DNA of 64,000 nucleotides, taken from the NCBI RefSeq assembly GCF_988242995.1, contig NZ_OZ547043.1. One strand, given 5' to 3'. Numbering within the stretch: position 1 is the stretch's first letter; each line of letters starts with the position of its first letter. Both the position numbers and the translations under genes were made by a program. Below are positions 45,358 through 64,000 of the stretch, in pieces. The notes under the pieces were generated by a model that saw nothing but the letters and a program-made list of their open reading frames with translations, was not told the DNA's origin and did no database searches.

Positions 45358-45398
45358 TTTTAATTCCGATTGAGTTTATTATTAATTAGGTCACTGGC

Positions 45399-48003: not shown

Positions 48004-48038
48004 CACAGTTATGAACTCAGTTTTGGTTCATAACTGTG
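48004..48038. repeat. Perfect 13-bp inverted repeat with 9-bp spacer
   Basis: cacagttatgaac-tcagttttg-gttcataactgtg; a related palindromic 10-mer gttcatgaac lies about 40 nt further on. Confidence 0.8.
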
Positions 48039-48137
48039 TTAAACGCTGTCCATAAATCACTCGATGTTACGCTTATTGGTTCATGAACTGTTCGTTCTAA
48101 TGTTGTGATGTGCGTCAGGTTTTAGTGTTCGGTAATG

Positions 48138-48941
48138 TTACCTTTTACTCGATGATCGATTGTTTAGCACCTCTCCCACAACCGGAGCAGCGGTAAATGC
48201 GTTTGGCCAGCCAGCATAGAAGGCGGCCTGGGTAACGATCTCACCAGCTTCCTCAACAGAAAGTCCATTATCCATTGCTCTGTTAAGGTGATAGCCAATC
48301 TGCGCGCTCTGTCCGGATGCGATTAAGGCGCTGACCGTAATCAGGCTTCTGTCGCGGGGTTTCAGCGCGGGTCTTTGCCAGAGATCCAGGAAGAGTGGAT
48401 CAGCAGTGAATTTAACCAGGCCTGGAGATATTGGGCCAACATTTTTTTCCACTGTTTCTGAACGCTGCTTTTCTGCTTCCTGATTGAGAGGAAGCAGGTC
48501 CGGAGAAGCGTCAGGAAGTGCATCTGCCGTGACGCCACGAGTTTCAAATACTGCTTTGGTCACGCTGACGGCTGACATTGCATTTGGCCAACCTGAGTAG
48601 AACGCCAGATGGGTAATGATTTCTGATAATTCCGCTGGCGTCACGCCGCTATCGAGAGCGACGTCAATATAGTGCTTAAGCTGGGCAGGCTGGTTGCGGG
48701 CAATCAGCATGGCGACGGTCACCACACTACGATCCCTCGGTGAGAGGGCGTCGCGTGTCCACAGATCTTCAGTAATAGCTTCGCGACCAAAGCGCGCGAG
48801 AGCCGGTGAGACGGAACGAATATCAGCTTCCGAAATCGCTGACGGTTCTATTTTCATCATAGCTTTACCTCTTGTTTCCTCAGCATTGGCAAAATCAGAA
48901 ATAACAAGCGACATAGCCGCTGCTGCAAGTACGCTTTTCAT
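48138..48941 (-). CDS. Tandem carboxymuconolactone decarboxylase-like (AhpD-like) protein with predicted signal peptide
   Basis: 267 aa; two repeated modules each with a ...ITHLAFYSGWPNA... type segment (CMD/AhpD fold); N-terminus MKSVLAAAAMSLVISDFANA looks like a Sec signal. Confidence 0.7.
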   Translation of the reverse strand: MKSVLAAAAMSLVISDFANAEETRGKAMMKIEPSAISEADIRSVSPALARFGREAITEDLWTRDALSPRDRSVVTVAMLIARNQPAQLKHYIDVALDSGVTPAELSEIITHLAFYSGWPNAMSAVSVTKAVFETRGVTADALPDASPDLLPLNQEAEKQRSETVEKNVGPISPGLVKFTADPLFLDLWQRPALKPRDRSLITVSALIASGQSAQIGYHLNRAMDNGLSVEEAGEIVTQAAFYAGWPNAFTAAPVVGEVLNNRSSSKR

Positions 48942-48956
48942 GTTAATCCTTACTGG

Positions 48957-49682
48957 TCAACGTTGCTGCTCCTGTTTGATTCCGCCTTTGTTACGAAGAA
49001 ATACCGGTTTTACCGGGATTGCGTCCTTCCTGGCGCTCATATGCGCCGTTTGCCTGAGGTAATCCAGGAAGTGCGGCGTTTGTCGGTGCAGTTGATAATC
49101 CTCCTCACTGGCGTAAATCTCATAGAAATACCAGCGTTTTGGAGTCTCTGAATCTGTACCGGCATACATGGCTAACACGCCTTTCTCTACTTTGAGCGAC
49201 TCGACCATTTCAGGAAGGACGATGTTTCTAAATTCGCTCTGAAATTCAGGCTTTACTTCGACGATCACCAGATTATTGATAGTTCGTTCATTCGGTATGA
49301 TGTGTTTGTCGCCCAGAAACTGTGGCTCCAGGGTAATTTTCTTCTTCCTGTCAATAATGTCAGGTGCACGAGCAGCGAATGCTTTGTATGGGGCGGCATT
49401 GAGATGTTTGCGATAAGCACGCTCATTTTCATAGAGTTCGAACATGAATGCCTTATGTGGATTGTCGCTGTGGTGCAGGGCGTACATCGCCAGCGTACCT
49501 ACTTCATGATCAACCGAAGCGGAAATCGTCTGTCTGGCTACGTCTGCAAAGTCGTTGTCCCGATCGGGTCTGATGCCGAGCTCGAAGATATTCATCTCCG
49601 GCTTATTCGGCGCGTCCGGTTTTGTTGCAAAGACAGGGCTGCTTATTAGCATGCAAATTAAAAGCATAAAAGTCTTTTTCAC
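48957..49682 (-). CDS. Tandem ABM-type (antibiotic biosynthesis monooxygenase-like) protein with predicted signal peptide
   Basis: 241 aa; two halves each with LAMYA...FYEIY / FELYENE... features of the ferredoxin-like ABM fold; N-terminus MKKTFMLLICMLISSPVFA. Confidence 0.6.
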   Translation of the reverse strand: MKKTFMLLICMLISSPVFATKPDAPNKPEMNIFELGIRPDRDNDFADVARQTISASVDHEVGTLAMYALHHSDNPHKAFMFELYENERAYRKHLNAAPYKAFAARAPDIIDRKKKITLEPQFLGDKHIIPNERTINNLVIVEVKPEFQSEFRNIVLPEMVESLKVEKGVLAMYAGTDSETPKRWYFYEIYASEEDYQLHRQTPHFLDYLRQTAHMSARKDAIPVKPVFLRNKGGIKQEQQR

Positions 49683-49797
49683 GATGATCTTTTTACTGAC
49701 ATTACTGTTTAAGACGTTCGATCAACTGGTGCTGGTAGGAACGTAACCGACCGCTACTGGCGCTCTCAAAGACTAGAGGAGGAAAAGTGAATAAGGG

Positions 49798-50817
49798 CTA
49801 TCGCGTCCATACCTGCTTAACATCTTTCGTTTGCGGCGTATTTTGCGCCATGATCCCCGTCAGAACATGCGGCTGGTAGGTTTCTTCCAGAAACTGAATT
49901 TCCTCCGGACTTAGTTGAAGATTTACTGCGTTTACCGCGCCATCGACATGAGCTTTTTTTGTAGCCCCTACGACAGGTGATGTGACTTTTGTCAGCAGCC
50001 AAGCGAGAGATATTTCCGTCATTGACACCAGATGGCGTTCGGCCAGTTCGGCTACACGCTCAATAATGCTGCGATCCTGTTCAGCCGTGCTGTCATATTT
50101 TCCACGCGCATAGTCATCCTCTGTGGCTCGCCGCGTATAGCCTTCTTTACGAGAGAGGCGGCCGCTGGCCAGCGCGCTATAGGGGGTCATTGCGATATTA
50201 TCCTCAGTGCACAGGCCGAAGAGCTCCCGTTCATCTTCGCGCATAATTAGATTGTAGTGGCTCTGTACGGAAACAAAGGGCGTCAGCCCTTCGCGTTCAG
50301 CAAGGGCGTTCGCCTTCGCCAGCTGCCAGGCATAGCAGTTTGAAATACCAACAGCTCGTACTTTGCCAGCAGTAACAGCGGTATGTAACGCTTCAAGCAC
50401 GTCGATAATGGGCGTGTTGTAATCCCAGATGTGGTAGATGTAGAGGTCGATATAGTCCATCCCCAGATTCTTCAGGCTCTGGTCAAGGGATTGAGCGATT
50501 GCCTCTTTTCCGCTGATCCCTCCGGCAATTTGTGCGGGGGTTCGCGGCAGAAACTTGGTGGCCAGGACGATATCATCGCGTTTCGCCATCTCCCGTAATG
50601 CCCGGCCAACGTATCGCTCACTGGAGCCATTCTGGTAGGCTATAGCGGTATCGTAAAAGTTGATGCCCTTTTCAAGGCCATAGCGAATGATGTCGCGGCT
50701 TGCTGTTTCGTCCAGCGTCCAGCTATGCTGACCCGTCGACGGATCGCCAAACCCCATGCATCCCATGCAGATGCGGGAAACAAGTAAGTCACTTTTACCG
50801 AGCCGGGTATACTGCAT
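49798..50817 (-). CDS. Aldo/keto reductase
   Basis: 339 aa; AKR motifs (GINFYDTAIAY, catalytic Tyr/Lys context). Confidence 0.8.
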   Translation of the reverse strand: MQYTRLGKSDLLVSRICMGCMGFGDPSTGQHSWTLDETASRDIIRYGLEKGINFYDTAIAYQNGSSERYVGRALREMAKRDDIVLATKFLPRTPAQIAGGISGKEAIAQSLDQSLKNLGMDYIDLYIYHIWDYNTPIIDVLEALHTAVTAGKVRAVGISNCYAWQLAKANALAEREGLTPFVSVQSHYNLIMREDERELFGLCTEDNIAMTPYSALASGRLSRKEGYTRRATEDDYARGKYDSTAEQDRSIIERVAELAERHLVSMTEISLAWLLTKVTSPVVGATKKAHVDGAVNAVNLQLSPEEIQFLEETYQPHVLTGIMAQNTPQTKDVKQVWTR

Positions 50818-50819
50818 TG

Positions 50820-51392
50820 TTATTCTCCCTCTGGATTATTCACGACGGAATTGAGCAGTTCGACAAGCCTTGAAGCGTGTTCCCGGGCAAGCGTTTTTTG
50901 CTGCGCGATTTTGTCGGCATCCCGGTCGGCATAGCTGATACCGCAGGTATAAACCGGCGCCAGCAGCTCAAGATTGCACAGCCTTGCCGTGGTTTCGAAC
51001 GGAATAAGATACTCTTCAATGGTATTGCCAAAGAAACTGTCGACGGTATAGAGCTCCTCTGGCGCTCCCGTTGTAAAGGAGAGGATCAGCTTTTTACCGC
51101 CCAGTTTCGCCGTTGAGCCATGCGCGAAGCCGTGAACAAAGACCTCGTCCAGCCATTTTTTCATTAATCCTGGCAGCCCATACCAGGAAAAAGGGAACTG
51201 CCAGACAATCACATCGGCCCTGAGCAGGCTTTTCTGCTCCGCCGCGATGTTGAATTTGCCATCCGGATAGAGCCTGTCCAGACGACGAATCTCAACATCG
51301 GGAAGGGCGGTCTCCACTTCATCAAGAATAGTGGCATTGGCGACGGAATGGGTAAGCTCAGGATGACCTGAAATAACAAGGATATTTTTCAT
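50820..51392 (-). CDS. Flavodoxin-like NAD(P)H:quinone oxidoreductase family protein
   Basis: 190 aa; MKNILVISGHPE... N-terminus and WQFPFSWYGLPGLMKKWLDEV typical of NAD(P)H dehydrogenase (quinone) family; 3-nt gap to the downstream AKR gene. Confidence 0.75.
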   Translation of the reverse strand: MKNILVISGHPELTHSVANATILDEVETALPDVEIRRLDRLYPDGKFNIAAEQKSLLRADVIVWQFPFSWYGLPGLMKKWLDEVFVHGFAHGSTAKLGGKKLILSFTTGAPEELYTVDSFFGNTIEEYLIPFETTARLCNLELLAPVYTCGISYADRDADKIAQQKTLAREHASRLVELLNSVVNNPEGE

Positions 51393-51542
51393 TTCAATCA
51401 GTTAAACATCTTTGGTGAATATTAAATCCAGTATAGAGTGACAACATTATTTTTTTAGAGCAGTAAAGGCTCATTCACTTTTAGGCAAAAACTAATAATT
51501 GTCGGCTGATCACAATGTGCTCAGTCATCATGAAACGGTGAA

Positions 51543-52220
51543 CTAAACCGTGATGCCCAGTAAACGTTCTGCATTGCGAAACGCGATGGCCTCTTTTTCA
51601 GCCTTGTTGACGGGCAGACTGTCTATAAAGGTTTTTACACCGTCCAGGGGTCTGATAGGGATAACCGACGGAGAACAGGATCCTTTCAGCACCCATTAAC
51701 GCGTAGATAAACTGGAAGTGCGGCAGTGTTAGCATATGACGGGGTAACGTAAACGTGTTCCTGGAAGGTTCTCGTTAGCGTGCGTGACAGACCCGTTGCA
51801 GCCAGTGCTAGGCTGTCATCAAGACGCTGGAGCCAGAAGGGTAACATCTCCCCCCAGTGGCCACTGATTACCTGCAGGTTGGGATATTTATCAAATGCGC
51901 CCGATAACATCAGCCGCAACAAATGGATCCCCGCTTCGTGATGCCAGCCCCAGGCAAACATAGAAAGCCTGGCGTTGACCTCTGCGCTGAAGCCCGTGAA
52001 GTAGGCCTGCTGTACGCTTTTAAGCGGTAACCCGGGATGAAGATAGAGTGGCACATTCAGTTTATTAAAGCGGGAAAGCAGGGAGTCGGTCAGGATTATG
52101 ACCATCAGCGACGGTTTTCCCCCTGTCGCCAAGGAAAGGTGCCTGCTCAAGCGCAACAGGCATACACGCGCGCCCTAACTCGCTGTCGAGATAATTTTCT
52201 TCGAGGCAAATGATTTTCAT
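51543..52220 (-). pseudogene. Frameshifted amidohydrolase-2 (TIM-barrel metal-dependent hydrolase) gene
   Basis: Coding potential is split over three frames: MKIICLEENYLDSELG... (from ATG at 52220), a 156-aa middle ORF (51686-52156) containing ISGHWGEMLPFW, and a C-terminal piece ...AEKEAIAFRNAERLLGITV* ending at 51543. Confidence 0.55.
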
Positions 52221-52322
52221 ATTCTCACCATTCATACAAAGCAGTAAAAGTGATACAGATTAGAATCACCCGGAACAGCCCGTTCGTGTGTGTCATTCAT
52301 GACAGTCTGTTCCGGACGGGCT

Positions 52323-53270
52323 TTACACCATCGGTTTTTCCCAGGCGCCTCGTGTATCCACTCTGGTCTCTGCGGCGAGTTGTTCCAGCAGGATGATTTC
52401 CTCATCGCGTAACTGGATGTCTGAAGCGCAGGCGGCGTCCAGAACGTGATGGACTTTAGTCGCACCAACGAGGGGAAGGGTACCTTTCACAATAGCCCAT
52501 GCGATGGATATCTGTGCCACGCTGGCATTCCTTTCGGCTCCCATTTTTTTCATGGCGGCGGTTAGTCTTTCTATCTGCGGCAGTACGGCGTTATAACTTT
52601 CGGCCCGGCCACTCCCGGCAGGCATGGGATGATTTGAATCATAACGACCACTGAGCGCGCCTTGCTCCAGGACCATGTAAGCAAAGAACGTGATGTTATT
52701 TTGTCGGCAATAATCAAGGATCCCGGCCTCTTCAGAAGCGCGATAGAGCAGGCTGTAGTGATTTTGTACTGCACTGAGGGAATAACCGGAAGCGTTAAGG
52801 ATTTCATTGGCGCGTCTGATTTGTGCCAGATTGTGGTTGGAAACACCTACGCGTTTTACCTTACCGCTTTGTAAAAGTGGGATCAGTCCTGGCGTCCATT
52901 TTTCGACGTCGAGGGGATTATGGATCCAGTAGATATCAATCGCGTCCACGCCCAGGCGCCCAAGGCTGGCCTCAAGCATATCGCTGACAGGCTGCGCAGA
53001 CTGCTTGTCCGCAATCTGCGGCGTGAATTTGGTGGATAAAATTATGTTCTCGCGGGGAAACTGACGGACTAATGCTCCCAGCGCAGTCTCGGAACTCCCC
53101 ATACCATATACTGCTGCGGTATCCCAGAGATTGAGGCCCTTACTCATGGCCGCAGTGAACACTTCTGCCATCTGAGTATCAGAAAGATGATTACCAAAGA
53201 CGGTGTCGCCGCCGGCAAAGCCTGTGCCCCAGGACCATGTACCTAGTGCGACTGGAGGTAGTGTTTTCAT
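52323..53270 (-). CDS. Aldo/keto reductase
   Basis: 315 aa; AKR motifs (LWDTAAVYG, IDIYWIHNP). Confidence 0.8.
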   Translation of the reverse strand: MKTLPPVALGTWSWGTGFAGGDTVFGNHLSDTQMAEVFTAAMSKGLNLWDTAAVYGMGSSETALGALVRQFPRENIILSTKFTPQIADKQSAQPVSDMLEASLGRLGVDAIDIYWIHNPLDVEKWTPGLIPLLQSGKVKRVGVSNHNLAQIRRANEILNASGYSLSAVQNHYSLLYRASEEAGILDYCRQNNITFFAYMVLEQGALSGRYDSNHPMPAGSGRAESYNAVLPQIERLTAAMKKMGAERNASVAQISIAWAIVKGTLPLVGATKVHHVLDAACASDIQLRDEEIILLEQLAAETRVDTRGAWEKPMV

Positions 53271-53343
53271 ATTCAGCTCCTGAAAAAAGGCCGGATCGTG
53301 GCTGACTTAAACCGGCCAAGTAAGGTGAGTAACGATGAATTAA

Positions 53344-54033
53344 TTAAGCTGTCCGGCGGAGTGCATTTAACAGCGCCACACCAACCCCATGTGCTGAAGC
53401 GGGATTCTGCCCCGTGATAAGGCGATCGTCGGTAACCACGTTTTCAGACCAGTTTGGAGCTTCATGATAAAGCGCACCATGCTCGCGAAGTGCGGTTTCA
53501 AGCAGGAAGGGAACCACATCTGTTGTGTGAACTTCTTCCTCTTCCTTGTTGGTAAAGGCCGCCACATTTTTCCCTTTTATCAGGTATTCGCCGCTACTGA
53601 GTTTTGCGTCAACCAATGCCGCAGGCCCGTGGCAGACGGCTGAGACAATCCCATCACTTTCATACACTTCGCGGATAATACGCTGGGCATCCTGATTATC
53701 ACGGAAATCCCACATGGTCCCATGACCACCTGCAAAGAAAACTGCGCTGTAATCGGCACCTTTCAGCTCGGATAACGCAGGTGTTGTTGCCAGGCGCTGC
53801 TGAAAATCGGTTTCGTTCCAGTACCAGGCGTTAACAGGGTCGCTGAGGTCAAATCCATCCACCGGTGGCTGCCCCCCGCGAATACTGGCTATTGTTGTTT
53901 TTATTCCGGCATCTTCCAGTACTTTCAGCGGATGAGTCAGCTCGGCCAGGAAAAAACCGGTTGGTACACCGGATGCGCCTTTAATCGGATGGCTGGAAAC
54001 GACACATAGCACTGGTTTATATGCAGGTTTCAT
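53344..54033 (-). CDS. DJ-1/PfpI (class I glutamine amidotransferase-like) family protein
   Basis: Roughly 229 aa; nucleophile-elbow-like AVCHGP; start uncertain (track ORF extends to 54045). Confidence 0.75.
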   Translation of the reverse strand: MKPAYKPVLCVVSSHPIKGASGVPTGFFLAELTHPLKVLEDAGIKTTIASIRGGQPPVDGFDLSDPVNAWYWNETDFQQRLATTPALSELKGADYSAVFFAGGHGTMWDFRDNQDAQRIIREVYESDGIVSAVCHGPAALVDAKLSSGEYLIKGKNVAAFTNKEEEEVHTTDVVPFLLETALREHGALYHEAPNWSENVVTDDRLITGQNPASAHGVGVALLNALRRTA

Positions 54034-54041
54034 ATCGGTCC

Positions 54042-54353
54042 TCACTCTTTATTTTTAAATTCATCGGCGAAGAGATTTTCCCAGTTAATAAAGGAGCCAA
54101 GCGGTATACACTCGAAGCTTAGTAAGCCTGCTTTTGCCAACGGGAATTCGGCCATAACGTTCATCGCTTCATCGACAGAGTCACATTCAAGAAAAATAGC
54201 GACGCCAGGTCTGTCCTGACGGAAGTAGATGTCGCGGATGAAGCCTGATTTATACAATCCCCAGGCGTGCAGCGCTTCAGCGTTGAGGTGCGGAGCATAT
54301 TTCTCCAGCGATGCTCCAGGGGCAGGGATATCCAGACATAAAATTCGCATCAT
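54042..54353 (-). CDS. Small alpha+beta-barrel protein, possibly muconolactone-isomerase-like
   Basis: 103-aa ORF first in the operon; weak pattern similarity to muconolactone isomerase and other dimeric alpha/beta-barrel proteins; assignment tentative. Confidence 0.45.
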   Translation of the reverse strand: MMRILCLDIPAPGASLEKYAPHLNAEALHAWGLYKSGFIRDIYFRQDRPGVAIFLECDSVDEAMNVMAEFPLAKAGLLSFECIPLGSFINWENLFADEFKNKE

Positions 54354-54489
54354 AGTCTCCTGAACTCAGGTCGTTGTAGAAAGAGACTAAAGTATAAGAG
54401 GCGTATTTCAGGAAGATTAGAGGGTCATTGACTTAAGCATTTTTAGACTGTACTTAATAATCAGGCGAGAATTGCTTTAGGAAAACATT

Positions 54490-55389
54490 ATGAATAACGC
54501 TCTTTATAACCAGATTCGCATCTTCCAGAGCATTGCGCGGGAGGGCAATATTTCGGCAGCCGCAAGGAAACTGGAAATTACGCCTCCCTCCGTCAGCAAT
54601 GCACTAAAGCTGCTGGAAGAGTATATCGGCCATCCGCTTTTTGTGCGTACGACCCGCCGTATAGAGCTGACGGAAACCGGTCAATTATTGCTGGAACAGA
54701 CCGCTGCGGCGGTGGAGTCGCTGGAAAACTCACTTGAAAGCATTCGCGACCAGCATCAGGAGCCCTCTGGGATGGTGCGAATTACGCTCTCGCGTTTTGC
54801 CTACCTGTTAATTCTTAAGCCTGCGATGGCAGAATTCTGTCAGCAATATCCGGGTATACAGTTAGAAATTTCGGTCTACGACGGTACCGTGAATATCATC
54901 AAAGAGCGTTTTGATCTGGGGATCCGTTTTGGCGATATTCTTGAGGGAGGGGTGGTGGCCCGACCGTTAATGAAACCGTTTCGTGAAGGATTATATGCAT
55001 CCTCAGCGTATCTCTCCCGACATGGAACGCCTGAAGTGCCGGCAGATCTCTGTCATCACCAGCTGATTGGTTACCGTTTTATCACCAACAACCGCATCCT
55101 TCCGCTGCTCCTGAACGATCGCGGTGAGCAGTTGACCGTTGAGATGCCGGGGCAGTTAATCAGCAACGATATTGACGTTATGGCAGACGGGATCCGTAAC
55201 GGGCTGGGAATTGGGCGCTTGTTTGAGCCTGTCTGGCAGTTACAGCCGGACAGGGAGCGCTTTATTCCGGTGATGGAGAGCTACTGGAAAACCTACCCGC
55301 CAGTGTATCTCTATTACCCCAAAAACGCGGGTAAAACGAAAAGAGTGAAGGCCCTGATTGATTTTCTGATATCCACTACGGGGCGATAA
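54490..55389 (+). CDS. LysR-family transcriptional regulator
   Basis: 299 aa; N-terminal HTH (ISAAARKLEITPPSVSNALKLLEE) and LysR substrate-binding domain; divergent from the redox operon. Confidence 0.85.
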   Translation: MNNALYNQIRIFQSIAREGNISAAARKLEITPPSVSNALKLLEEYIGHPLFVRTTRRIELTETGQLLLEQTAAAVESLENSLESIRDQHQEPSGMVRITLSRFAYLLILKPAMAEFCQQYPGIQLEISVYDGTVNIIKERFDLGIRFGDILEGGVVARPLMKPFREGLYASSAYLSRHGTPEVPADLCHHQLIGYRFITNNRILPLLLNDRGEQLTVEMPGQLISNDIDVMADGIRNGLGIGRLFEPVWQLQPDRERFIPVMESYWKTYPPVYLYYPKNAGKTKRVKALIDFLISTTGR

Positions 55390-55787
55390 AGACGATAACG
55401 CCTCGTTCAGTATGGAGATGCATCGAATGGCATTGTGAGTTTTTTTTCACAGATGGGCGTAATCGTCAGTGGATTTTACATACGAGGATAGCGCCCACAT
55501 ACTGACATCATTAATTAACGTTGGGTGAGGTTTACCGGGGGGGAGGGGAACGCGAACCAGGAGATGGAGGTGGCCAATCTGGTACGAACCGCCGCGTAGC
55601 TTGCACGGCAAGAGCTGCTGACTGATTCATCAGTTAAGCTACTGAAAGAGCGGAACACATGAACTTAAGAACAAACCACCACATTTAACATAATATACAT
55701 TATGCGCACCAGCATAAACCAAGGAAGAATCCAGTCGTTGGCGGCCATAATTGTCCTGCTCATTAACAACGACCAAAACCCCATATC

Positions 55788-57110
55788 TTACTTAATACCG
55801 TATTCTCGGCTTAACCGGCCGTGCAACCTCAACACATTGGTTTCAACTGCCGTCACCACGTTCTCCGGAAAATCTGTCGGTAACGAAGTCTTCACGTTAT
55901 CCAGTGCTGCCGGAATCATTCTGGCAAAGTAATTCAGGATTTCATGCATCTGCACTTCCGGGAATCTCAGCACCTTTGCTGTCGCCAGAAAATGTCGCGG
56001 ATAAATTTTATCGATTGCCGTTTTTTTGCCTTTGGATGCGTTAAGCCCCATTGCCAGTTTGAGATCGCTGATGTGTATTCCTGCGCCACCCAATACCGGA
56101 AATGCTGAAATGATGTCGTAAAATGGCGTGAGTCGATAACTGCCGCCAGCCTGAATAAATACGGAGAAGTTTTTTGCATGGCCATCCGTTGCGCCAATCA
56201 ACCACTGGAACACCTGAAACTTCATAAAATCATAGCGATCTTTCAGCGCCTCGCTGGACCCCATCAAAAAAGCCATGATCCGCGCGATGCCTGGGCCTCC
56301 ATCTGATTCATATTTCACCGATGAAGGTAAACCGAATGTCTGACACATATCCTCCTGTGGCAAGCGAAGTAAAACCGTTCGCTCAGCATTCCAACGCCTG
56401 TCAAAACGTTCGACCGCTAACGCGCGCACATTTCCCGCTTTAATGATTTCTGCGTCCGGCACATTCAACCCAAGTTCTTTCGCCAGCAGCAGACAGTAAT
56501 ACTCATTATCAACGCTTTGGCTGAGATCGAGCGTCGCATTGGGCTGCCTGATTTCGCCAATCGGTAATTTAATGATGTGCGTCGTCGGCGTTATTCCTTT
56601 CGGAATGCACCAGTCATTGCCTATTCTGAGCAGCGCTGTCTTCTCCTGCGCGCCAGCAACCGAGATGCGAAAGTCATTTTCTTCTCTAATCATGCCCAGA
56701 GGGATATCTGCTTTATAAGCCGTTAATACTTCTTCAAGCCTGGCTTCAGTGAGCTGTTCCCATGCCATTATCGGGCGCGTTATGGTTTCATTTTCGGGTA
56801 ATAACGTTACGGCACCAACGCTATCTCGCCCTATTTCTGACAATAAATCAAACGGTTGTCTGGATTTAGCATGATAACGTTTAACGATCCGGTCACGTAC
56901 AATCGGGCTATCGGGTAGCAGGTTATCGAAGAAGTTAAATACAGCATCAGAGGTGATATTCCCCCTCTGCAATGGCAGCGAAAGTGATAACGGTCTGGCA
57001 TAACGGTTGGCTAACCACTCCGGTGCATACTTAAAGGTGTGCGCGCCATTGGCTAACTTCGTTAACTCGCCTACCCGCTGGTTGTTCATCCAAGTGACAA
57101 GTTTAGGCAT
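55788..57110 (-). CDS. hipA: Serine/threonine kinase toxin HipA
   Basis: Track ORF 55788-57167 with start MPKLVTWMNNQRVGELTKLANGAHTFKYAPEWLA (440 aa); start overlaps the hipB stop by 1 nt. Confidence 0.93.
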   Translation of the reverse strand: MPKLVTWMNNQRVGELTKLANGAHTFKYAPEWLANRYARPLSLSLPLQRGNITSDAVFNFFDNLLPDSPIVRDRIVKRYHAKSRQPFDLLSEIGRDSVGAVTLLPENETITRPIMAWEQLTEARLEEVLTAYKADIPLGMIREENDFRISVAGAQEKTALLRIGNDWCIPKGITPTTHIIKLPIGEIRQPNATLDLSQSVDNEYYCLLLAKELGLNVPDAEIIKAGNVRALAVERFDRRWNAERTVLLRLPQEDMCQTFGLPSSVKYESDGGPGIARIMAFLMGSSEALKDRYDFMKFQVFQWLIGATDGHAKNFSVFIQAGGSYRLTPFYDIISAFPVLGGAGIHISDLKLAMGLNASKGKKTAIDKIYPRHFLATAKVLRFPEVQMHEILNYFARMIPAALDNVKTSLPTDFPENVVTAVETNVLRLHGRLSREYGIK

Positions 57111-57376
57111 TACCACTCCAGATCTTGCTGTTCTGTTGATTCTGGCGAGGCATTTTTCGTGTCGCATAGCGTCATTGAGAGTTCAAGCGACTGTAAAATC
57201 TTAAAAAATGTCGTCAGCGTGGTATTGTCAGGGTTGTTTTCGAAATTGGAAATTGTCGCCTGCTTAATGCCGATTTTTTTCGCCAGCTCGCTCTGCGTCC
57301 AGCCATTTTGCTGACGAACCAGTTTCATTGCATTCGCTAATTGCGTTGGGCTATAGATCTTCTGAAAGCTCATCAT
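57110..57376 (-). CDS. hipB: HipB antitoxin (Xre-type HTH repressor)
   Basis: Track ORF 57110-57394 with start MMSFQKIYSPTQLANAMKLVRQQNGWTQSELAKKIG (88 aa). Confidence 0.93.
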   Translation of the reverse strand: MMSFQKIYSPTQLANAMKLVRQQNGWTQSELAKKIGIKQATISNFENNPDNTTLTTFFKILQSLELSMTLCDTKNASPESTEQQDLEW

Positions 57377-57397
57377 GTCATACGTCCACAGCAAATT

Positions 57398-57511
57398 TAT
57401 CCGCTCAAGGGGATATTATCAGTTTTATCCTTTAGTGAGGATAAAGTCAATCTGGAAACACATCTTATCCGCTCTACGGGATAAACGCTGCGATATCCGC
57501 GATCGCGGATA
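57398..57511 (-). promoter_or_regulatory. hipBA promoter/operator region with four HipB operators (TATCC-N8-GGATA)
   Basis: Four copies of TATCC-N8-GGATA at 57398-57415, 57426-57443, 57466-57483 and 57494-57511, all upstream of the hipB ATG. Confidence 0.85.
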
Positions 57512-57586: not shown

Positions 57587-60500
57587 TTACCAGCTATATT
57601 TCACACCCAGCATGCCCTGAGTATCGCTATAGCCTTTATCACCTAGTTGCACACCGACATTCCCCCACAGGCTAAGGTTGTTATTTACTTTCGCCTCAAC
57701 CCCGGTACGTACTTCACCGAGATTACGCGCACCATCACGGCTTACGGTTTGACCATTCATCTTCACGGCGTAGACTTTGCTGTTGTTGATCCAGTTCGCT
57801 TCAATGTAAGGCTGGAACTCACGCTGTTTACCATTGTCACGCTGGTGATGACTGTTCAGGTAGGTTTTCACCCCAAGTCGCGTTTGCACGTTTCCGTCGC
57901 CTTCCGTTTCAATGCGTGTTCCGTCTTTCCGGGTATGGTCAGAATCTTTCACACCCATCCAGGTGATTTGTACCTGTGGCTGGACGTACCAGGTATTCAG
58001 CGTCCCTTCGCTGCCGCTAAAAGTTCCCGCTTCAAAGGTATACCCACCCTCAACAGAGGCCGTCACACCGCGAGAATCATAGTCGTCAGCAGAACGGTTA
58101 TCGGAACTGACGCTGTTATCAAACCAGTTATACAGCGCCCAGCTGTCAACATAAGCGCCGGTCTTATTCGCATCGTTCTGATACCAGGTCGCGTACAGTC
58201 CTGCGCTGTAACCGCTGATGCGCCCATCCGATTTATAACCCACACGATTACTCTGAGTATTACTGTGCTGATTGGCGTAGCCTGCCATCACGCCAAGATG
58301 CCAGCGATCCTGCGCGTTGCTACTCCACTGCGCCAAATCGCCTCCTAGCTGCAATACATAGCGGTTAGCCTGAGTATTTAGCTGCCCGTCACCGGTCCTG
58401 AAACGTTCGTGCCCCCCGACATGACGCATCCACATACTGCTTGCCGAACCCTGAGAATGCAGTGAATCTGTATACTGCGGCTCACCCAGACGGTCGTGTA
58501 AGCGATGGCTAAACAGCGAGTTGGCTGCGGCAATGTTGCTGATATAGCTTCCGGCCTCCGGGCGATAAACTGATGGGCCTTCCGGATCCACAACAGGGGG
58601 ATTATTGATGGGATCGGGTGTATCCGCTGGCGTTACGCCGTCCCATTTACTGGTCAGATACCAGTTTTTCTCGTCATTCCCCTTCCCTTTAGCCAGCGTG
58701 TAGACGTAAGCCCCAGCTTCGACAGTTCCGGTGGTCAGCGCGAAGTTACCTGCAGAATTACCGCCAACCTCAATGAGTTCAATACCGTTGACCGTTTGTG
58801 CACCGACGCCGCCAATGTTATCAACCCGAACGCGAGTGTTCCCTTGGGTATCGCCTTTCACGTTCATTTTATCCGTGGGTGAATTATCGCCGCCCAGCGT
58901 CGCGTTGAACGTCATCAGGCCATTGTTTCCGGTATAGTTGCCGTTAACGGTCAGTACATTCCCCGGTTTTCCTCCTTCACTATTCATTTGAACCGTGCCG
59001 CCATTCTCCAGGTTACCGCCGACAGTGGTTTTAGCGACACGCAGTGTCCCCCCTGGCATAACGTTCACATCACCTGCAGTAGTGACATTTCCCGACATCA
59101 CACCGCTGTTATGGATATTAATGTGCTGACTTGCCATATTAATGGCAGAGTCGGAACCGAAAGCAATTTCACCACCCACGATATCCGTCGTACCCTGATA
59201 CGCCGCGGAATCTTTGTTAAGAGTCAGGATCCCGGTCCCCAGTTTTGTCACATCACCGCTACCGCTGATACTGTGCGTCATCGCCCAGCTACGCTCAGTG
59301 GAGATGGTGAGCAGGCCATTATTGATAACGGAAGCATCACCCAGGTTTTTCTGCTCGTTGACGCTGAGCGCGCTGCCTGTATCAATGTTGAATTGCCCCA
59401 CAAAGCGGCTATTATCGCCATCCAGCTCTACGTCTGTCCTGGCGGTTGCGCTCACGATACCCTTCCCGCTTATGCTATTACGCAGTTCGCCGGTCACATT
59501 TTTTAGCGTTAACAGACCGTCATTGGCAATATTTCCTCTACCTAACCCCTGCGTATTATCGAGGCTGACTTCCGCATTTGGGCTAATGCTGGTTAACGCA
59601 TTGTAGCGTGCATTAAGCCCCTCGATAGCCAGCGTTCCCCCTGTAACATTCAGGTTTCCGCCACCTGTCAGTTCGCCCTGACTGATCCCACCTTTATTCA
59701 CCGTCAGCGACCCCTCTTTAAACAAAACAGTCGAACCCATCAGCCCGGTGAATGTCTCTACCGTCTGGGCCGATCCATTAAGATCGACGATGGCCGCGTT
59801 GCTGATGTTCAGTTCCCGAGTATTGCCCAGCGCGCCATCCGCATCGGTACGTAATGTCCCCATCTGAACGTAGGTTGCCCCCTGATAGTCGTTCTGACCG
59901 TTGGAAAGCGAAACCTGTCGCACCGTATTGATTGCCAGATCCCCTTCACCACCGATTTTTGCCGACATATCGGCCGTTGCGCCATAGGCTCCGCCATGTT
60001 CGGCTAACGTCAGCTTTTGCCCACCATGGATGTTCAGCGCTTTCAGCCCATAGTTAACGTACAAACCATCACCTGGTGCGGTCGTGAGGCGGAATCCATA
60101 ATCACCCTCGGCGACCACTGTCCCGTTTTGTGCAATATGTAACGTTTTGTCCGCTTCCACCTCGTCGCCCTGTAAATCACGTAACGTTAATGAGCCACCC
60201 GACCCAATAACCGTTTGCGCCTTCACCAGTTGAACGCCGACATGACTATCATCGTGTTCCAGCAAATTGAGCGTCGTCAGAGGGTTATTCGCCATGGGAT
60301 CATTCCACGGTTTAGGCACGTCGATAAGCACGTCGCCCGTCCCGTTTACCTGATAGTTACGGCCTTTCCAGGTGTAGTCACCCGCGCCGACAACCAGCGT
60401 ATCGACGCTGATATATCCCTCCGCGAGCGTCGCAGCAGGAATATCCGTATCGAAAATGAGCGTACCGCCATTCATGGCCAGTCCACCAATGGATTGCTCT

Positions 60501-63007
60501 CCCACGTTTACCGATGTGGTATTTTCACTGTCAGACTGCAACATCGCGTGAGTAAGCGCAGCGGTGTTGTCGCGTTCCAGCGTGAAGGTACTATCTTTCA
60601 GTTGGGCAACACCGGCGAATTCAGTCCCTGTTGCATGGGTAAAGCCAAACATCTTGTCGGAGGATGACAGCTGCACTCGCATCAAGCCATCGCCTTTGAG
60701 CGCATTGGTCAGCGTGTAATCTCCTGCACTGTTCGTTGATGCGAGAATGTCGAGCGTACCGGGGTTTGCAATGGTTACTTCACTCGAACCCATGCCCGTT
60801 ACCCCATCTGCCGTATGAGACGCAATGGTCAGGAGGCCGTCATTGACCAGCGTTTTACCGCTATAAGTATTCCCTGCATTGAACACCGTATGGCCTGCAT
60901 CATGGATCACTTTTCCGTCTTTATCGTCACCTGTAATCAGCATATCGACCTGGTAGCCGGCATCACTGTTATTAGTATGATTAAAGACAAAAACACCTTC
61001 GCCAGAGCCAAACTCTATTTTCGTCGCGTTGGTGATAAATCCGGCATCTGCCGCCGCCTCACCGTGAGCTGCACCAATGTTTAGCGTTCCTACAGCAGGT
61101 TCAAAAACACCTAAGTAAACTTCTCCACCTTCGACATTCAGCGTACCGTTATTCGTCAGTGTTAACGTACCTGTGCCAGTCGTCCCTACATTCATATTGA
61201 ATGTTTCAAGAAGAGAGTTCTGCCCATCCACCCGCACGTCGCCCTTACTTTTGTCATTGAGAGCTATCTGTGTATCACGCGCTTTAACTATACCTCCGGT
61301 GGTAATATTCAGTTCACCCGCGCCTAATACACCGACCTGTAGCAATTGGGCGTTAGTAGATGACGTTTTTAAATTCCAGAGACTATCCGTTGAAATATTA
61401 ACTATCCCCTTACCGGAGGCATTTCCTCCGATAAATCCATAGCCCGTTGAATTAAGAGTGGCACCATTACTGACATTTACGATGCCGCTACCAAAATTAC
61501 CGACATTAATACCTACAGTATCGAACAATGATGTCGCATCCATCAGGTTCAGTGTGCCGATACCGCTTGCTTTATCGCCCAAAAAAGTAATATTTTGCGA
61601 TACAAACTTACCGCCATCGCTAATATTGAGGTTTCCGACACCCGCAACACCAATGGTGGTATAGACATTCTTATTGACCTCCCACATCCCCCCCGTGGTG
61701 ATGCTGACATTCCCGACGCCGGTTTCTCCATAACCGAGTGAGCTTCCTCCGTTGCTGACAACAAGCCCCTCATTACTGATATTCATTTCGCCGTGGCCGT
61801 CATAACCAAGATTAGTTCCGAGATTAGTGATAACGGAGTTCTTATCCTTAATAGTAATGTTGCCTGTGCCTGTTTCTTTCATCCCCGCAGTGATAATTCC
61901 CGAATCTACTTTTCCTTCACTCGAGACATTAAGTTCACCGTCGCCAGCATCACCGATATAGATATAGCGGAAAGCTTCGCCCGTTCCGAGGAAATTCCAA
62001 TGCCCTTTATCAGTCACGTTGACGACACCGTGGGAACCGTCCTGAACGCCCACCAATGAATATTCTTTGTTATTAATCAGTCCATTATTGGAAATATTGA
62101 CTTTGCCATTACCGAAATATCCATTATAGAGTCTGCGTACCGTGATGACAGAGTCTTGATCCTGCACATTCAGGGTTCCGATACCGGTGGCATTGCCACC
62201 GATAATCGTATTTTCAGCCGTAATCAGCCCACCCTCGCGAATAGTCGCTTCCCCAGTTCCTTGATTGCCAATTTGAAATTCAATTGAGGAATCATTATTT
62301 TTTATTAGCCACTCGCCACCCTTTTCAACGACAACCTTACCATTACTGTTCGCCTGATATCCTACAATGGCGACGATTGAACTCGTGACGTAACCCTTAT
62401 CCGTAATATTTAATGAGCCTGTACCGTAACTCCCTATTTCGAATAATTCGGTCATCAGAACCGAGTCCTCTCCCTCAACATTGACCGTCCCGACGCCTCC
62501 TGTCGAAGAACCTATCCTTAAATATCCTCCGTCAACGTGCCCCTTCTGTTTAATATTCAGCATCCCCGTTCCGGATTGGCCCACATTTAAAGGCCTTGCA
62601 TTATTTCCGCTATCATACAATCGCCAGGTGCCACCCAAAACATTAACGGTGCCCTTCGAGTTCTCATTACCACCAATGACGCTGGTAGTAATAGTGGTTA
62701 AGGAGGCATTACCGCCAGCCAAAATATTAAGCACTCCAGTGCCATACCACCCAACCAGGTAGGCATCATAAGCAATATCAGTATTAATATTGGTAATCTG
62801 ATCATTATCAACTTCCAGACTCGCACCAGACGCTGAACCGCTTAGTGCCAGCAAAACACCCAGCGACAATCTACTGAATTTCGTTGTCAGTCCAGAGGAT
62901 TTACGCAAATTAACCGTCGATGTTTTACCTACTCTGCGAGTTAATTCCGAGCAGACCTGAAATACCTGTAGGGTGCAATTCCATATCACGCGATAGATTC
63001 TATTCAT
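57587..63007 (-). CDS. yneO: AIDA-I-type autotransporter adhesin, intact, 1806 aa
   Basis: Extended autotransporter signal region (MNRIYRVIWNCTLQVFQVCSELTRR...), long passenger with reiterated G-x-G / NxG beta-helix-like modules, and a C-terminal beta-barrel ending ...GVKYSW; position between hipB and lsrK matches K-12 yneO. Confidence 0.85.
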   Translation of the reverse strand: MNRIYRVIWNCTLQVFQVCSELTRRVGKTSTVNLRKSSGLTTKFSRLSLGVLLALSGSASGASLEVDNDQITNINTDIAYDAYLVGWYGTGVLNILAGGNASLTTITTSVIGGNENSKGTVNVLGGTWRLYDSGNNARPLNVGQSGTGMLNIKQKGHVDGGYLRIGSSTGGVGTVNVEGEDSVLMTELFEIGSYGTGSLNITDKGYVTSSIVAIVGYQANSNGKVVVEKGGEWLIKNNDSSIEFQIGNQGTGEATIREGGLITAENTIIGGNATGIGTLNVQDQDSVITVRRLYNGYFGNGKVNISNNGLINNKEYSLVGVQDGSHGVVNVTDKGHWNFLGTGEAFRYIYIGDAGDGELNVSSEGKVDSGIITAGMKETGTGNITIKDKNSVITNLGTNLGYDGHGEMNISNEGLVVSNGGSSLGYGETGVGNVSITTGGMWEVNKNVYTTIGVAGVGNLNISDGGKFVSQNITFLGDKASGIGTLNLMDATSLFDTVGINVGNFGSGIVNVSNGATLNSTGYGFIGGNASGKGIVNISTDSLWNLKTSSTNAQLLQVGVLGAGELNITTGGIVKARDTQIALNDKSKGDVRVDGQNSLLETFNMNVGTTGTGTLTLTNNGTLNVEGGEVYLGVFEPAVGTLNIGAAHGEAAADAGFITNATKIEFGSGEGVFVFNHTNNSDAGYQVDMLITGDDKDGKVIHDAGHTVFNAGNTYSGKTLVNDGLLTIASHTADGVTGMGSSEVTIANPGTLDILASTNSAGDYTLTNALKGDGLMRVQLSSSDKMFGFTHATGTEFAGVAQLKDSTFTLERDNTAALTHAMLQSDSENTTSVNVGEQSIGGLAMNGGTLIFDTDIPAATLAEGYISVDTLVVGAGDYTWKGRNYQVNGTGDVLIDVPKPWNDPMANNPLTTLNLLEHDDSHVGVQLVKAQTVIGSGGSLTLRDLQGDEVEADKTLHIAQNGTVVAEGDYGFRLTTAPGDGLYVNYGLKALNIHGGQKLTLAEHGGAYGATADMSAKIGGEGDLAINTVRQVSLSNGQNDYQGATYVQMGTLRTDADGALGNTRELNISNAAIVDLNGSAQTVETFTGLMGSTVLFKEGSLTVNKGGISQGELTGGGNLNVTGGTLAIEGLNARYNALTSISPNAEVSLDNTQGLGRGNIANDGLLTLKNVTGELRNSISGKGIVSATARTDVELDGDNSRFVGQFNIDTGSALSVNEQKNLGDASVINNGLLTISTERSWAMTHSISGSGDVTKLGTGILTLNKDSAAYQGTTDIVGGEIAFGSDSAINMASQHINIHNSGVMSGNVTTAGDVNVMPGGTLRVAKTTVGGNLENGGTVQMNSEGGKPGNVLTVNGNYTGNNGLMTFNATLGGDNSPTDKMNVKGDTQGNTRVRVDNIGGVGAQTVNGIELIEVGGNSAGNFALTTGTVEAGAYVYTLAKGKGNDEKNWYLTSKWDGVTPADTPDPINNPPVVDPEGPSVYRPEAGSYISNIAAANSLFSHRLHDRLGEPQYTDSLHSQGSASSMWMRHVGGHERFRTGDGQLNTQANRYVLQLGGDLAQWSSNAQDRWHLGVMAGYANQHSNTQSNRVGYKSDGRISGYSAGLYATWYQNDANKTGAYVDSWALYNWFDNSVSSDNRSADDYDSRGVTASVEGGYTFEAGTFSGSEGTLNTWYVQPQVQITWMGVKDSDHTRKDGTRIETEGDGNVQTRLGVKTYLNSHHQRDNGKQREFQPYIEANWINNSKVYAVKMNGQTVSRDGARNLGEVRTGVEAKVNNNLSLWGNVGVQLGDKGYSDTQGMLGVKYSW

Positions 63008-63530
63008 ATAAACGCTCCATATACAAACAATACAGCCACGAAAGAGATGAGTCGTCAGACATTAAAAATGAAACTTATTAAATTGTCAGAGGTCTGTATT
63101 GAGTGTTGGTTGGAGGTGGGAAGGTGTCAATTTGGCTAATTTGCTAATACTTTCGAATTGATAGATTAAAAATTGCATAGTTCTTATTTTATTTAAAAAT
63201 GAACCATGAGTTATTGTTGCTTAATAAGAAAAATGTTTCTTTTAATAAGAAAATTACCATCATCATATTTAACAAAGAATAGCATTAATTGCTAAAAAAG
63301 AACTCTATTAAAACTCTTTTTCATTCATTTATGCCTTTAGGAATATTCGCTATAAAATAAGGGTTATGCTTAATATTTTAAGAAAAATAGCAATTTCCCC
63401 TTGAATATATTACTGGCGATGGAACGATGAATCTGCAAGCTGGCATTTAACAAACCAGCTCTAAAAGAAGGGAAATAAGAATACTCAAAAACTAACAGCC
63501 ACGGTCATCATGATGTGGCTGTCAATGAAA

Positions 63531-64000
63531 CTATAACCCAGGCGCTTTCCATAACGACGTCGTCAGCCCGTGATCAACCAGCCCCAGCTGATCCTGATAA
63601 ACTGCCTGCCACTTATCGCGTGAATCCTGATAAAGTTCATGTTTTTCCGGGTCTGGTGTGTGCGTCCGTTCCCAGCGAACCAGGCGTTCTCCGGTTTCTG
63701 CCATTGATGAAAAAATTCCGGCACCGACGCCAGCTGCAATGGCACATCCTAATGCGGTGGCTTCTTTGACCACCGGAATATTGACAGGTAATCCCGAGAC
63801 ATCAGCGAGAATTTGACTCCATAATTTCCCTTTTGAACCTCCGCCTGCAAAGACTAACGATGAAGGATGAATATCCGAGAAATCAGCGATTTGCTGCAAG
63901 TTACACGCTGATACAATCGCCGCATTTTCTTCCAGCGCACGGAACAACGTCGCTTTGTTACATTTATCCGGATCAATAGACAAATTAATAAAGGAAGGCG
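63531..64000 (-). CDS. lsrK: Autoinducer-2 kinase (FGGY carbohydrate kinase), C-terminal part; gene runs off the window end
   Basis: Track ORF 63531-63983 contains FGGY-kinase C-terminal motifs ([20 protein letters not shown]...); the reading frame continues past position 64000. Confidence 0.85.

Follow-up and report, generated by a model that had tools for sequence, protein, structure and literature searches.

The open reading frame at positions 57587..63007, on the minus strand of the 64,000-nucleotide stretch of DNA analysed here (the window), is an intact Escherichia coli gene orthologous to yneO (formerly ydeK/ydeU), a pseudogene in K-12. We put at roughly 85 % the probability of the overall reading, in which the gene encodes an ECSE_1600-family type Va autotransporter that forms a rod on the cell surface, is expressed at a low level and is repeatedly lost. 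As an earlier note made from the letters alone had it, the frame is single and uninterrupted, running from an ATG through 1806 codons to a TAA with zero internal stops. The protein scores 4148 bits with the NCBIfam model NF011422 ('ECSE_1600 family autotransporter'), whose cut-off is 2335, residues 1–1806 lying on model positions 1–1806 of 1806; it is identical to an NCBI entry under the ECSE_1600-family name, seen on 82 contigs, and is 97–98 % identical to the main database clusters. The gene and its two neighbours are placed as follows:

57587..63007, minus strand: complete coding sequence of the ECSE_1600-family type Va autotransporter (NF011422 match and K-12 locus)
57110..57376, minus strand: hipB (88 aa), next gene downstream, which fixes the identity of the locus (NF007271, E-value 3e-55)
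63531..64000, minus strand: 3′ end of lsrK (autoinducer-2 kinase), located upstream and annotated there in every E. coli locus fetched

In K-12, yneO (b4696) sits between hipB and lsrK, and the window gene is in the equivalent place, with hipB and hipA following it and the lsrK 3′ end preceding it, so the position that the earlier note had assigned to it is correct. All E. coli loci that retain hipB have it directly downstream of the gene, as do two distant orthologues (L021 and L022). A set of 149 substitutions and a G run that is longer by one G are all that separates K-12 yneO from the window gene. Of 5426 complete E. coli genomes, 3949 contain the locus (5.9 kb, at least 80 % covered). The best-matching complete genomes are 99.1 % identical over 24 kb, and across the locus itself none in the collection exceeds about 99 %. 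The full-length collinearity with NF011422, the shared K-12 gene order and the presence of the locus in so many genomes show that the frame is neither a chimera nor a misassembly across collapsed repeats.

The gene is an ordinary one, and public databases already contain both its family and a protein identical to its product. ECSE_1600 was described in E. coli SE11 in 2008 as a protein of 1806 aa, with a patchy distribution: SE11 and HS have it intact, in MG1655, E24377A and Sakai it is disrupted, and the three phylogroup B2 strains that Oshima et al. examined lack it (PMC2608844). The window gene is the same gene as that of SE11, with the same length and the same hipB–lsrK locus. About three quarters of complete E. 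coli genomes carry this uncharacterised autotransporter, and the intact allele is the natural template for a first functional study.

The domains of the protein follow one another in this order:

62867..63007, minus strand: ESPR extended signal-peptide region, aa 1–47 (Pfam PF13018, E-value 2.8e-14)
62822..62866, minus strand: hydrophobic core and likely signal-peptidase I region, aa 48–62, ending LSLGVLLALSGSASGA (read from the translation)
61022..62821, minus strand: N-terminal passenger, aa 63–662 (TIGR04393, rung scan, orthologue alignment, AlphaFold2)
59018..61021, minus strand: middle passenger 'stalk', aa 663–1330, a less regular β-helix with PATR repeats (Pfam, homologues, AlphaFold2)
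58652..59014, minus strand: autochaperone or pertactin-like junction, aa 1332–1452 (Pfam AC_1 and Pertactin; PDB 3ML3)
58436..58651, minus strand: linker, putatively threading the barrel pore, aa 1453–1524 (aligned to AIDA-I, 4MEE)
57590..58435, minus strand: C-terminal β-barrel translocator, aa 1525–1806 (PF03797, TIGR01414, AIDA-I 4MEE)

The extended signal region and the C-terminal β-barrel of the earlier note are both present, the latter matching the autotransporter β-domain PF03797 at aa 1525–1784 (E-value 4.5e-42) and TIGR01414 (E-value 1.3e-122). Between passenger and linker, Pfam places AC_1 at aa 1332–1438 (E-value 4.3e-26) and Pertactin at aa 1335–1452 (E-value 1.8e-10), and the structure of the IcsA autochaperone (3ML3) matches the same junction with an E-value of 1.4e-17. 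Signal-peptidase I cleavage is likely near aa 48–62, a placement read from the translation. The legacy name 'lipoprotein YdeK' does not apply, since the translation contains no Cys at aa 20–100 and hence no lipobox. An N-terminal Sec signal (ESPR plus hydrophobic core) and a β-barrel translocator are thus carried by one polypeptide, and in predicted structures the passenger is β-helical and ends in an autochaperone junction; judged from its sequence, the protein is a classical type Va autotransporter and is predicted to be displayed on the surface. If the protein follows the established type Va pathway, Sec-dependent export would be directed by the ESPR signal, BAM would insert the barrel, and the linker and passenger would pass to the surface with the C-terminus first. 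The linker would run through the barrel pore, by analogy with the AIDA-I transport unit structure (4MEE). The passenger would be driven outward as the autochaperone folds and the rungs stack, and the product would be a long rod on the cell surface.

The kinship with AIDA-I that the earlier note proposed holds for the translocator and junction. The autochaperone, linker and β-barrel are homologous to those of AIDA-I (4MEE; E-value 3e-87 over aa 1345–1806) and stand in the same order, and this homologous translocation unit with its pertactin-like junction places the protein in the AIDA-I-type subgroup. It falls outside AIDA-I proper, however, scoring 357 bits against a cut-off of 1200 with the AIDA-I model NF033176, and over aa 1298–1805 only. 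The passengers are unrelated in sequence, that of AIDA-I having 19-aa repeats and that of the window protein rungs of 24–30 aa. AIDA-I and TibA have cognate heptosyltransferases (aah and tibC), whereas the window gene has none adjacent: its neighbours are hipB and lsrK, and the 523-nt spacer upstream contains no ORF of at least 60 aa that runs in the same direction as the gene. Salmonella MisL and ShdA, E. coli YfaL/EhaC and Shigella IcsA are also similar in translocator and autochaperone (E-values 9e-140, 1e-62, 1e-59 and 1e-17, respectively, the last for the IcsA autochaperone), but these matches are confined to the C-terminal third and lie far below the equivalog cut-offs, and the passengers differ. 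The 'stalk' (aa ~700–1330) is 33–48 % identical to parts of large autotransporters of Citrobacter, Pseudomonas, Silvimonas and Xanthomonas, some of which also have N-terminal rungs of the TIGR04393 type; these proteins range from 1.5 to 7.7 kaa, have other N-terminal regions, and carry no specific name or known function.

The passenger spans about 1270 aa, and a continuous β-helix is predicted for it with high confidence. AlphaFold2 models of aa 55–700 (pLDDT 91.3, pTM 0.90) and aa 690–1345 (pLDDT 87.1) are both all-β solenoids. The best PDB matches of the N-terminal model are to Ag43 and TibA (4KH3, 7KOH and 4Q1Q), whereas the middle-passenger model has weak matches to the passengers of SepA, Ag43 and IcsA. 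The likeness to Ag43 and TibA is that of a β-helical rod (Foldseek E-values 3e-6 to 2e-5, probability 1.00), but sequence identity is 11–15 %, TM-scores are low (0.18–0.39), and rung period and curvature differ. In AIDA-I, TibA and Ag43 the rungs or repeats are 19 aa long. The imperfect repeats of about 19 aa that mark self-associating autotransporters are not seen in the window protein, which instead has about 22 rungs of the form G-x-G-x-[LVI]-x-[IVL] between aa 89 and 662, spaced 24–30 aa apart and grouped in the N-terminal part as five four-rung super-repeats of about 104 aa. This N-terminal passenger (aa 63–662) is the most divergent part between orthologues. By analogy with characterised relatives of the same build, the rod would most likely act as an adhesin or as an aggregation or biofilm factor.

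The earlier note had also called the passenger highly reiterated and had expected its repeats to cause slippage and recombination, with repeat number varying between strains. The reiteration is real in the protein, where TIGR04393 matches in eight stretches and the rungs recur about 22 times, but it does not extend to the DNA. Tandem Repeats Finder reports no tandem repeat in the gene, and the longest direct DNA repeats found by a seed-based search are 15–25 nt at 70–88 % identity. Rungs are 24–34 % identical in protein and 41–48 % in DNA, and the five super-repeats, also at 41–48 % nucleotide identity, share at most 10 nt of exact match in register. RecA-dependent recombination in E. coli needs roughly 20–30 nt of identity. 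Nor does length vary as expected: each of the eight intact alleles in the sample measures exactly 5421 nt, and two orthologues at 83–84 % nucleotide identity align ungapped, with zero indels, over all 5421 nt. In two database clusters, of 5726 and 18868 distinct sequences, the representatives and most members among those listed are 1806 aa.

A passenger acting as a substrate for slippage and unequal recombination, with gene length varying as in tandem-repeat adhesins, would also accord with two further observations. Public sequences include about 94 distinct in-frame internal deletions of 55–363 aa, and Citrobacter relatives differ in length within one 90 %-identity cluster, although the Escherichia gene is constant. 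The deletions are mostly singletons, however, and are scattered from aa 31 to 1771, autochaperone and barrel included, with no match to the repeat register. At the 94 junctions microhomology averages 3.2 nt, close to the 2.5 nt at random, mostly spanning 1–6 nt and in a few cases 9–11 nt; one example has a direct repeat of 11–12 nt and another has none. These deletions are rare, heterogeneous and not repeat-mediated. The near-identical DNA units and whole-unit length steps of tandem-repeat, length-variable surface proteins are both missing, and we regard instability of the repeats as largely refuted and barely credible for this gene. Its length is frozen at 1806 codons and the passenger repeats are without effect on length stability; a repeat pattern in a protein is by itself no sign of genetic instability. 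Such length changes as do occur are +1 or −1 slippage in poly-G runs, or the rare in-frame deletions with mostly 1–6 nt of microhomology.

Comparison of alleles points to three poly-G sites:

61688..61694, minus strand: site A, G7, gene nt 1314–1320, the longest homopolymer of the window allele
59170..59177, minus strand: site B, GGGTGGTG in the window (Gly-Gly as GGT GGT), an interrupted tract
59048..59053, minus strand: site C, G6 in the window

Across complete genomes site A is G7 in 2161, G6 in 37 and G8 in 55, both of the latter being frameshift variants, and a truncated product of 485 aa linked to this site occurs on 867 contigs. Most E. coli alleles have an unbroken G8 at site B, often slipped to G7 or G9 (G8 2656, G7 374, G9 437, window type 662), whereas outgroup orthologues have an interrupted tract there, as the window allele does. 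At site C, K-12-like intact alleles have G7 and K-12 itself has G8, which is its single frameshift; the exact K-12 G8 allele is found in 384 complete genomes, the six listed being laboratory strains or close relatives. The window allele thus differs from K-12 in being unframeshifted (G6 against G8 at site C) and in its interrupted site B, and it has the fewest and shortest G runs of the alleles compared, with tracts of G7 and G6 only. Five of the 13 full-length loci in the sample are frameshifted, and truncated products are each found on between 61 and at least 1000 contigs. The poly-G tracts explain the frequent frameshift calls of annotation pipelines and provide a simple marker of recurrent loss of the gene, which is repeatedly lost through +1 and −1 poly-G slippage, other small indels, IS insertions and deletions. 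Such frequent inactivation in nature indicates that the gene is dispensable in many lineages. We note that of four yneO mutations in a study of long-term stationary phase, one was nonsynonymous and three were IS2 insertions, with no tract slippage.

Losses on this scale raise the possibility that the gene is decaying, a functionless relic, and that the window frame is intact by chance only. In keeping with this are the absence of the gene from three B2 strains and its disruption in K-12, O157 and E24377A, the five frameshifted loci among 13, and the fact that no functional study was found in the literature under yneO, ydeK, ydeU or ECSE_1600, although general autotransporter reviews may list the gene. 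Against it, dN/dS between the window gene and eight intact alleles is 0.07–0.15 (about 0.12) and similar in all regions, the surface-exposed passenger included, which indicates purifying selection along the whole gene. The absence of any indel across some 16 % nucleotide divergence, the conservation of the 5′ leader and upstream boxes, and the many thousands of distinct database sequences that are 1806 aa long also argue against decay. We therefore consider a relic very improbable, and retain the reading of a selected gene that many lineages nevertheless lose.

A different role for the tracts would be that of contingency switches, with reversible +1 and −1 slippage switching production of the surface protein on and off within populations; Ag43, for comparison, is phase-variable through Dam and OxyR. 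Sites A and B do show one feature of a contingency locus, a homopolymer within the coding sequence that varies in length from isolate to isolate and thereby determines the reading frame. Frameshifts are concentrated in the G runs of a gene that, when intact, is under purifying selection; site B commonly slips in both directions, and slippage is rarer at the G7 site A (37 and 55 against 2161), so that its frequency rises with tract length. The alleles with G9 at site B, L014 and L020, have distinct backgrounds. Several points weigh more heavily on the other side. The recurrence of the same truncated products on hundreds to at least 1000 contigs fits clonal inheritance better than rapid switching, and the G8 tract is derived, since outgroups and the window allele are interrupted, and is thus no conserved design feature. 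Some frameshifted genomes carry further lesions, as in the L020 allele with its 233-nt deletion, and some of the counts may include homopolymer errors from long-read assemblies. Runs of G7 to G8 in mismatch-repair-proficient E. coli also slip rarely relative to classical contingency loci. Phase variation through these tracts is accordingly unlikely, and it is just as doubtful that the derived G8 and G7 runs of the main E. coli lineages are mutational on/off switches with window-like alleles 'locked on'. The case is testable, if unlikely, and if true would provide a homopolymer-based contingency locus in E. coli. Simple recurrent loss remains the reading we prefer.

Upstream of the gene the following elements can be placed:

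63008..63530, minus strand: intergenic regulatory region of 523 nt, 30.6 % GC, from the lsrK stop to the autotransporter start (sequence and conserved blocks)
63282..63296, plus strand: marbox-like GCATTAATTGCTAAA, some 275 nt before the ATG, one base off a MarA ChIP-seq site (PMC5684230)
63061..63089, minus strand: σ70 promoter CTGACA-17-TTTAAT, reported for K-12 yneO (PMC3946193) and identical in the window
63015..63018, minus strand: Shine–Dalgarno GGAG, 7 nt before the ATG

A scan for consensus promoters and terminators returned promoter-like sites no more numerous than in shuffled sequence, and these assignments rest instead on published SELEX and ChIP data together with conservation. The spacer shares conserved blocks with distant orthologues; in K-12 it is flagged as H-NS-bound (PMC3946193), and a spacer so AT-rich and reported to be bound by H-NS suggests that expression is probably low in standard culture. 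An RpoS SELEX peak, reflecting holoenzyme binding, has been reported in the ydeK–lsrK spacer (PMC5493296). The MarA ChIP-seq site was assigned to yneO in ETEC H10407 (PMC5684230), and MarA control of the window allele is uncertain because GCAT replaces the GCAC of the ETEC site. The position of the marbox is nevertheless conserved in 21 of 22 loci, distant orthologues included. The sequence CTGACA-17-TTTAAT has one exact match in the window and none in 100 shuffles, and the 5′ leader, with its Shine–Dalgarno sequence, is almost invariant across orthologues.

The autotransporter gene is a single ORF on the − strand (57587..63007) that runs from an ATG through 1806 codons to a TAA. The gene is 49.9 % G+C, and the 523 nt spacer 5′ of it 30.6 %. 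Downstream lie hipB (NF007271, E-value 3e-55) and hipA, and upstream the 3′ end of lsrK, and it is exactly in this hipB–lsrK interval that the yneO pseudogene (b4696) sits in K-12 MG1655. The features claimed in the earlier note are all present at the coordinates it gives, and it rightly identifies the gene as that of an AIDA-I-type autotransporter in the yneO position.

Pfam domains of the autotransporter protein (gene on the − strand)
aa 1–47, ESPR extended signal peptide (E-value 2.8e-14)
passenger, PATR repeats
aa 1332–1438, autochaperone AC_1
aa 1335–1452, pertactin-like region
aa 1525–1784, Autotransporter beta-domain (E-value 4.5e-42)

The build is that of a signal peptide, a long beta-helix rod, an autochaperone, a linker and a barrel, and no domain of a protease or another enzyme turned up in the protein. 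Residues 1–1806 align to the 1806-position NCBIfam model NF011422, 'ECSE_1600 family autotransporter', at 4148 bits (curated cut-off 2335 bits), and the protein belongs to the ECSE_1600 family and to the classical type Va autotransporters, having all of their defining features that can be tested in a sequence. Thousands of genomes, like the family model, are collinear with the gene, and the ORF is thus neither chimeric nor an assembly collapse, a possibility that had been raised.

The gene, the family and the exact protein are already known. The family takes its name from the commensal strain SE11, where ECSE_1600 is an intact autotransporter of 1806 aa; HS likewise has an intact copy, while the gene is disrupted in MG1655, E24377A and O157 Sakai and missing from the B2 strains CFT073, UTI89 and 536 (Oshima et al., 2008; PMC2608844). 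The identical amino acid sequence is public on 82 contigs, including NCBI EGH0559607.1 under the ECSE_1600 family name. At least 80 % of the 5.9 kb locus is present in 3949 of 5426 complete E. coli genomes, with only a 129 nt flank left in strain 536 (B2; PMC2608844) and several others. No genome in this collection is identical to the window (99.1 % at best over 24 kb), and the most similar autotransporter allele, with 27 mismatches, is that of E. coli AR_0006 (NZ_CP024851.1). The old name 'lipoprotein YdeK' has no basis, since the lipobox cysteine is absent. A literature search found no experimental papers under any of the gene's names (yneO, ydeK, ydeU, ECSE_1600).

The passenger is reiterated at the protein level, as had been noted. 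Eight stretches of its N-terminal part match TIGR04393 (T5SS/PEP-CTERM-associated repeat), some 22 copies of the motif G-x-G-x-[LVI]-x-[IVL] follow one another across aa 89–662 at a spacing of 24–30 aa, and five super-repeats of ~104 aa, each of four rungs, can be recognized. The further proposal, that these repeats are prone to slippage and recombination, is not supported. The super-repeats share 24–34 % pairwise identity as protein and 41–48 % as codon-aligned DNA, exact in-register nucleotide matches between units do not exceed 10 nt, Tandem Repeats Finder reported no tandem repeat in the gene, and its longest direct repeats are 15–25 nt at 70–88 % identity. The units are old and diverged, and DNA of this kind gives neither replication slippage nor homologous unequal crossing-over anything to act on.

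The suggestion that repeat number may vary between strains does not hold either: it is frozen rather than variable. Among 13 near-full-length loci picked at even steps along the ranking, 8 are intact and all 8 genes are exactly 5421 nt long, with the locus-length differences of 10–15 nt falling in intergenic spacers. Two distant orthologues (~85 % amino acid and 83–84 % nucleotide identity), from 'Enterobacteriaceae bacterium G50' (GCA_035726825.1) and an SRA assembly (SRR26334011), are likewise 5421 nt long and align to the window gene without gaps. Both adjoin hipBA, with a small gene of the Pmp3 family separating autotransporter and hipB, but upstream of them a molybdo-flavoprotein (xanthine-dehydrogenase-like) operon takes the place of lsrK. 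A Citrobacter autotransporter that has the middle passenger module in common with the window protein (P0247, P0337–P0350) occurs in forms of 2077, 2255, 2281 and 2640 aa within one 90 %-identity cluster, and length variation of the proposed kind may exist in that relative.

Against eight intact alleles the overall dN/dS is 0.07–0.15, with similar values for the rung repeats, middle passenger and barrel and one close to zero for the autochaperone. Together with the lack of any indel over ~16 % nucleotide divergence to the distant orthologues, and a 5′ leader that is nearly invariant across loci, this shows that the gene, where intact, is under purifying selection. Public sequences include ~94 distinct in-frame internal deletions of 55–363 aa (P0003–P0120), most in single-member clusters, whereas the two main clusters, with 1806 aa representatives, hold 5726 and 18868 distinct sequences. 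The deletions are scattered over aa 31–1771, autochaperone and barrel included, and most have little or no junction microhomology, the mean being close to random (3.2 vs 2.5 nt) with a few at 9–11 nt; of two examined as DNA, one has an 11–12 nt direct repeat (GGCGCGGGTGA) and the other has none. They look like sporadic losses in a large dispensable gene rather than changes of repeat units. One, of aa 953–1169, gives a 1589 aa product and is found in 78 index blocks of the collection.

Seven different frameshifting lesions are found in the five frameshifted loci of the sample taken together with K-12, EDL933 and one more locus. Six are +1 or −1 changes in a run of a single nucleotide, G in five cases and T (T6) in one; unlike these, the EDL933 lesion is an 8 nt duplication. 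K-12 yneO has 149 substitutions relative to the window gene, and one extra G in a G run, which leads to a stop at codon 1326.

Poly-G sites with run-length frameshifts (− strand)
Site A, gene nt 1314–1320 (window 61688..61694)
Site B, gene nt 3831–3838 (window 59170..59177)
Site C, gene nt 3955–3961 (window 59048..59053)

Site B is G8 in most E. coli alleles: exact matches in complete genomes number 2656 for G8, 374 for G7, 437 for G9 and 662 for an interrupted form, GGGTGGTG, or 4129 of ~4150 carriers. The corresponding counts at site A are 2161 for G7, 37 for G6 and 55 for G8, so the longer tract has shifted more often. G9 at site B is found on two different allele backgrounds (loci L014 and L020), which shows that frameshift events recur. 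Truncated products do exist and are passed on, with the 1325 aa (K-12), 1289 aa (G9) and 1343 aa (EDL933) forms on at least 1000 contigs each, a 485 aa form on 867 and a 1302 aa form on 61. The exact K-12 allele at site C (G8) was counted in 384 complete genomes; the six of them that are listed are all laboratory strains or closely related to these. The pattern of poly-G frameshifts at population scale, the one mildly new point, could represent phase variation, a testable hypothesis, but more probably it reflects recurrent gene loss. With G7 at site A, G6 at site C and the interrupted tract at site B, which the outgroup orthologues also have, the window allele is the form least exposed to slippage. 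The true mutational weak points of the gene are its poly-G runs, along with sporadic deletions.

AlphaFold2 models are all-beta solenoids throughout, both for aa 55–700 (pLDDT 91.3, pTM 0.90) and for aa 690–1345 (pLDDT 87.1, pTM 0.83). The best solved matches of the N-terminal model in Foldseek are Ag43 (4KH3, 7KOH, 7KOB) and TibA (4Q1Q), with E-values of 3e-6 to 2e-5 and probability 1.00, yet with TM-scores of 0.18–0.39 and 11–15 % identity; the middle passenger model weakly matches the SepA, Ag43 and IcsA passengers. By sequence, aa 1293–1457 align to the IcsA autochaperone and aa 1345–1806 to the solved AIDA-I transport unit (4MEE, E-value 3e-87). Although its translocator is AIDA-I-like, the protein is not AIDA-I, scoring 357 bits against a cut-off of 1200 with the AIDA-I model NF033176 and only over its C-terminal third. 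Two testable features set it apart from the self-associating AIDA-I/TibA/Ag43 group: it lacks the ~19 aa repeats, and its gene lacks an adjacent glycosyltransferase gene. Outside Escherichia, unnamed autotransporters of Citrobacter come closest to it (43–48 % identity in the middle passenger). On the established scheme of type Va secretion, the ESPR signal would slow Sec export, BAM would assist barrel insertion, and the passenger would cross C-to-N, driven by autochaperone folding and rung stacking, to be displayed on the surface. By analogy with relatives of the same build, the role is most likely in adhesion, aggregation or biofilm formation.

A sigma-70 promoter, CTGACA-17-TTTAAT, has been listed for yneO and the yneO–lsrK spacer flagged as H-NS-bound (Shimada et al., 2014; PMC3946193), and an RpoS-holoenzyme peak was placed in the same spacer (Shimada et al., 2017; PMC5493296). 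The identical 29 nt promoter element is at window 63061–63089, with zero matches in 100 shuffles; a plain consensus scan was uninformative, as shuffled sequence gave just as many sites. In ETEC H10407 a strong MarA ChIP-seq site, gcactaattgctaaa, was reported at yneO (Sharma et al., 2017; PMC5684230), and a one-mismatch copy, GCATTAATTGCTAAA, lies at 63282–63296 (+), ~275 nt 5′ of the ATG. Of 22 loci fetched, 21 have such a marbox-like element 5′ of the gene, ~275–290 nt from the start codon where measured, and it is kept in the distant orthologues (84 % nucleotide identity) despite their different upstream neighbour; it contains GCAT in the window allele and GCAC in most others.

Downstream of hipA, window 43933–47213 and 47679–55682 have no K-12 counterpart (blastn against the K-12 ydeR–lsrC interval). 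Here the window has an intact 883 aa fimbrial usher (42706–45357) and an ~8 kb cluster encoding a LysR regulator, a DJ-1/PfpI protein, two aldo-keto reductases and KefF-like and PcaC-like proteins, where in K-12 there is just a truncated usher, ydeT, and a pseudogene, yneL. The closest complete genomes (~99 % identical; H59–H70) have an extra SIR2-family NAD-dependent deacylase gene listed under the match; in AR_0006 it lies just past a truncated hipA, beside an ISNCY transposase fragment, whereas the region compared in the window, ~55700–57400, has a full-length hipA and no SIR2-family gene. In AR_0006, lsrK and lsrC are annotated as partial and mutually adjacent, which hints that a piece has been deleted from within the lsr operon beside the autotransporter gene.
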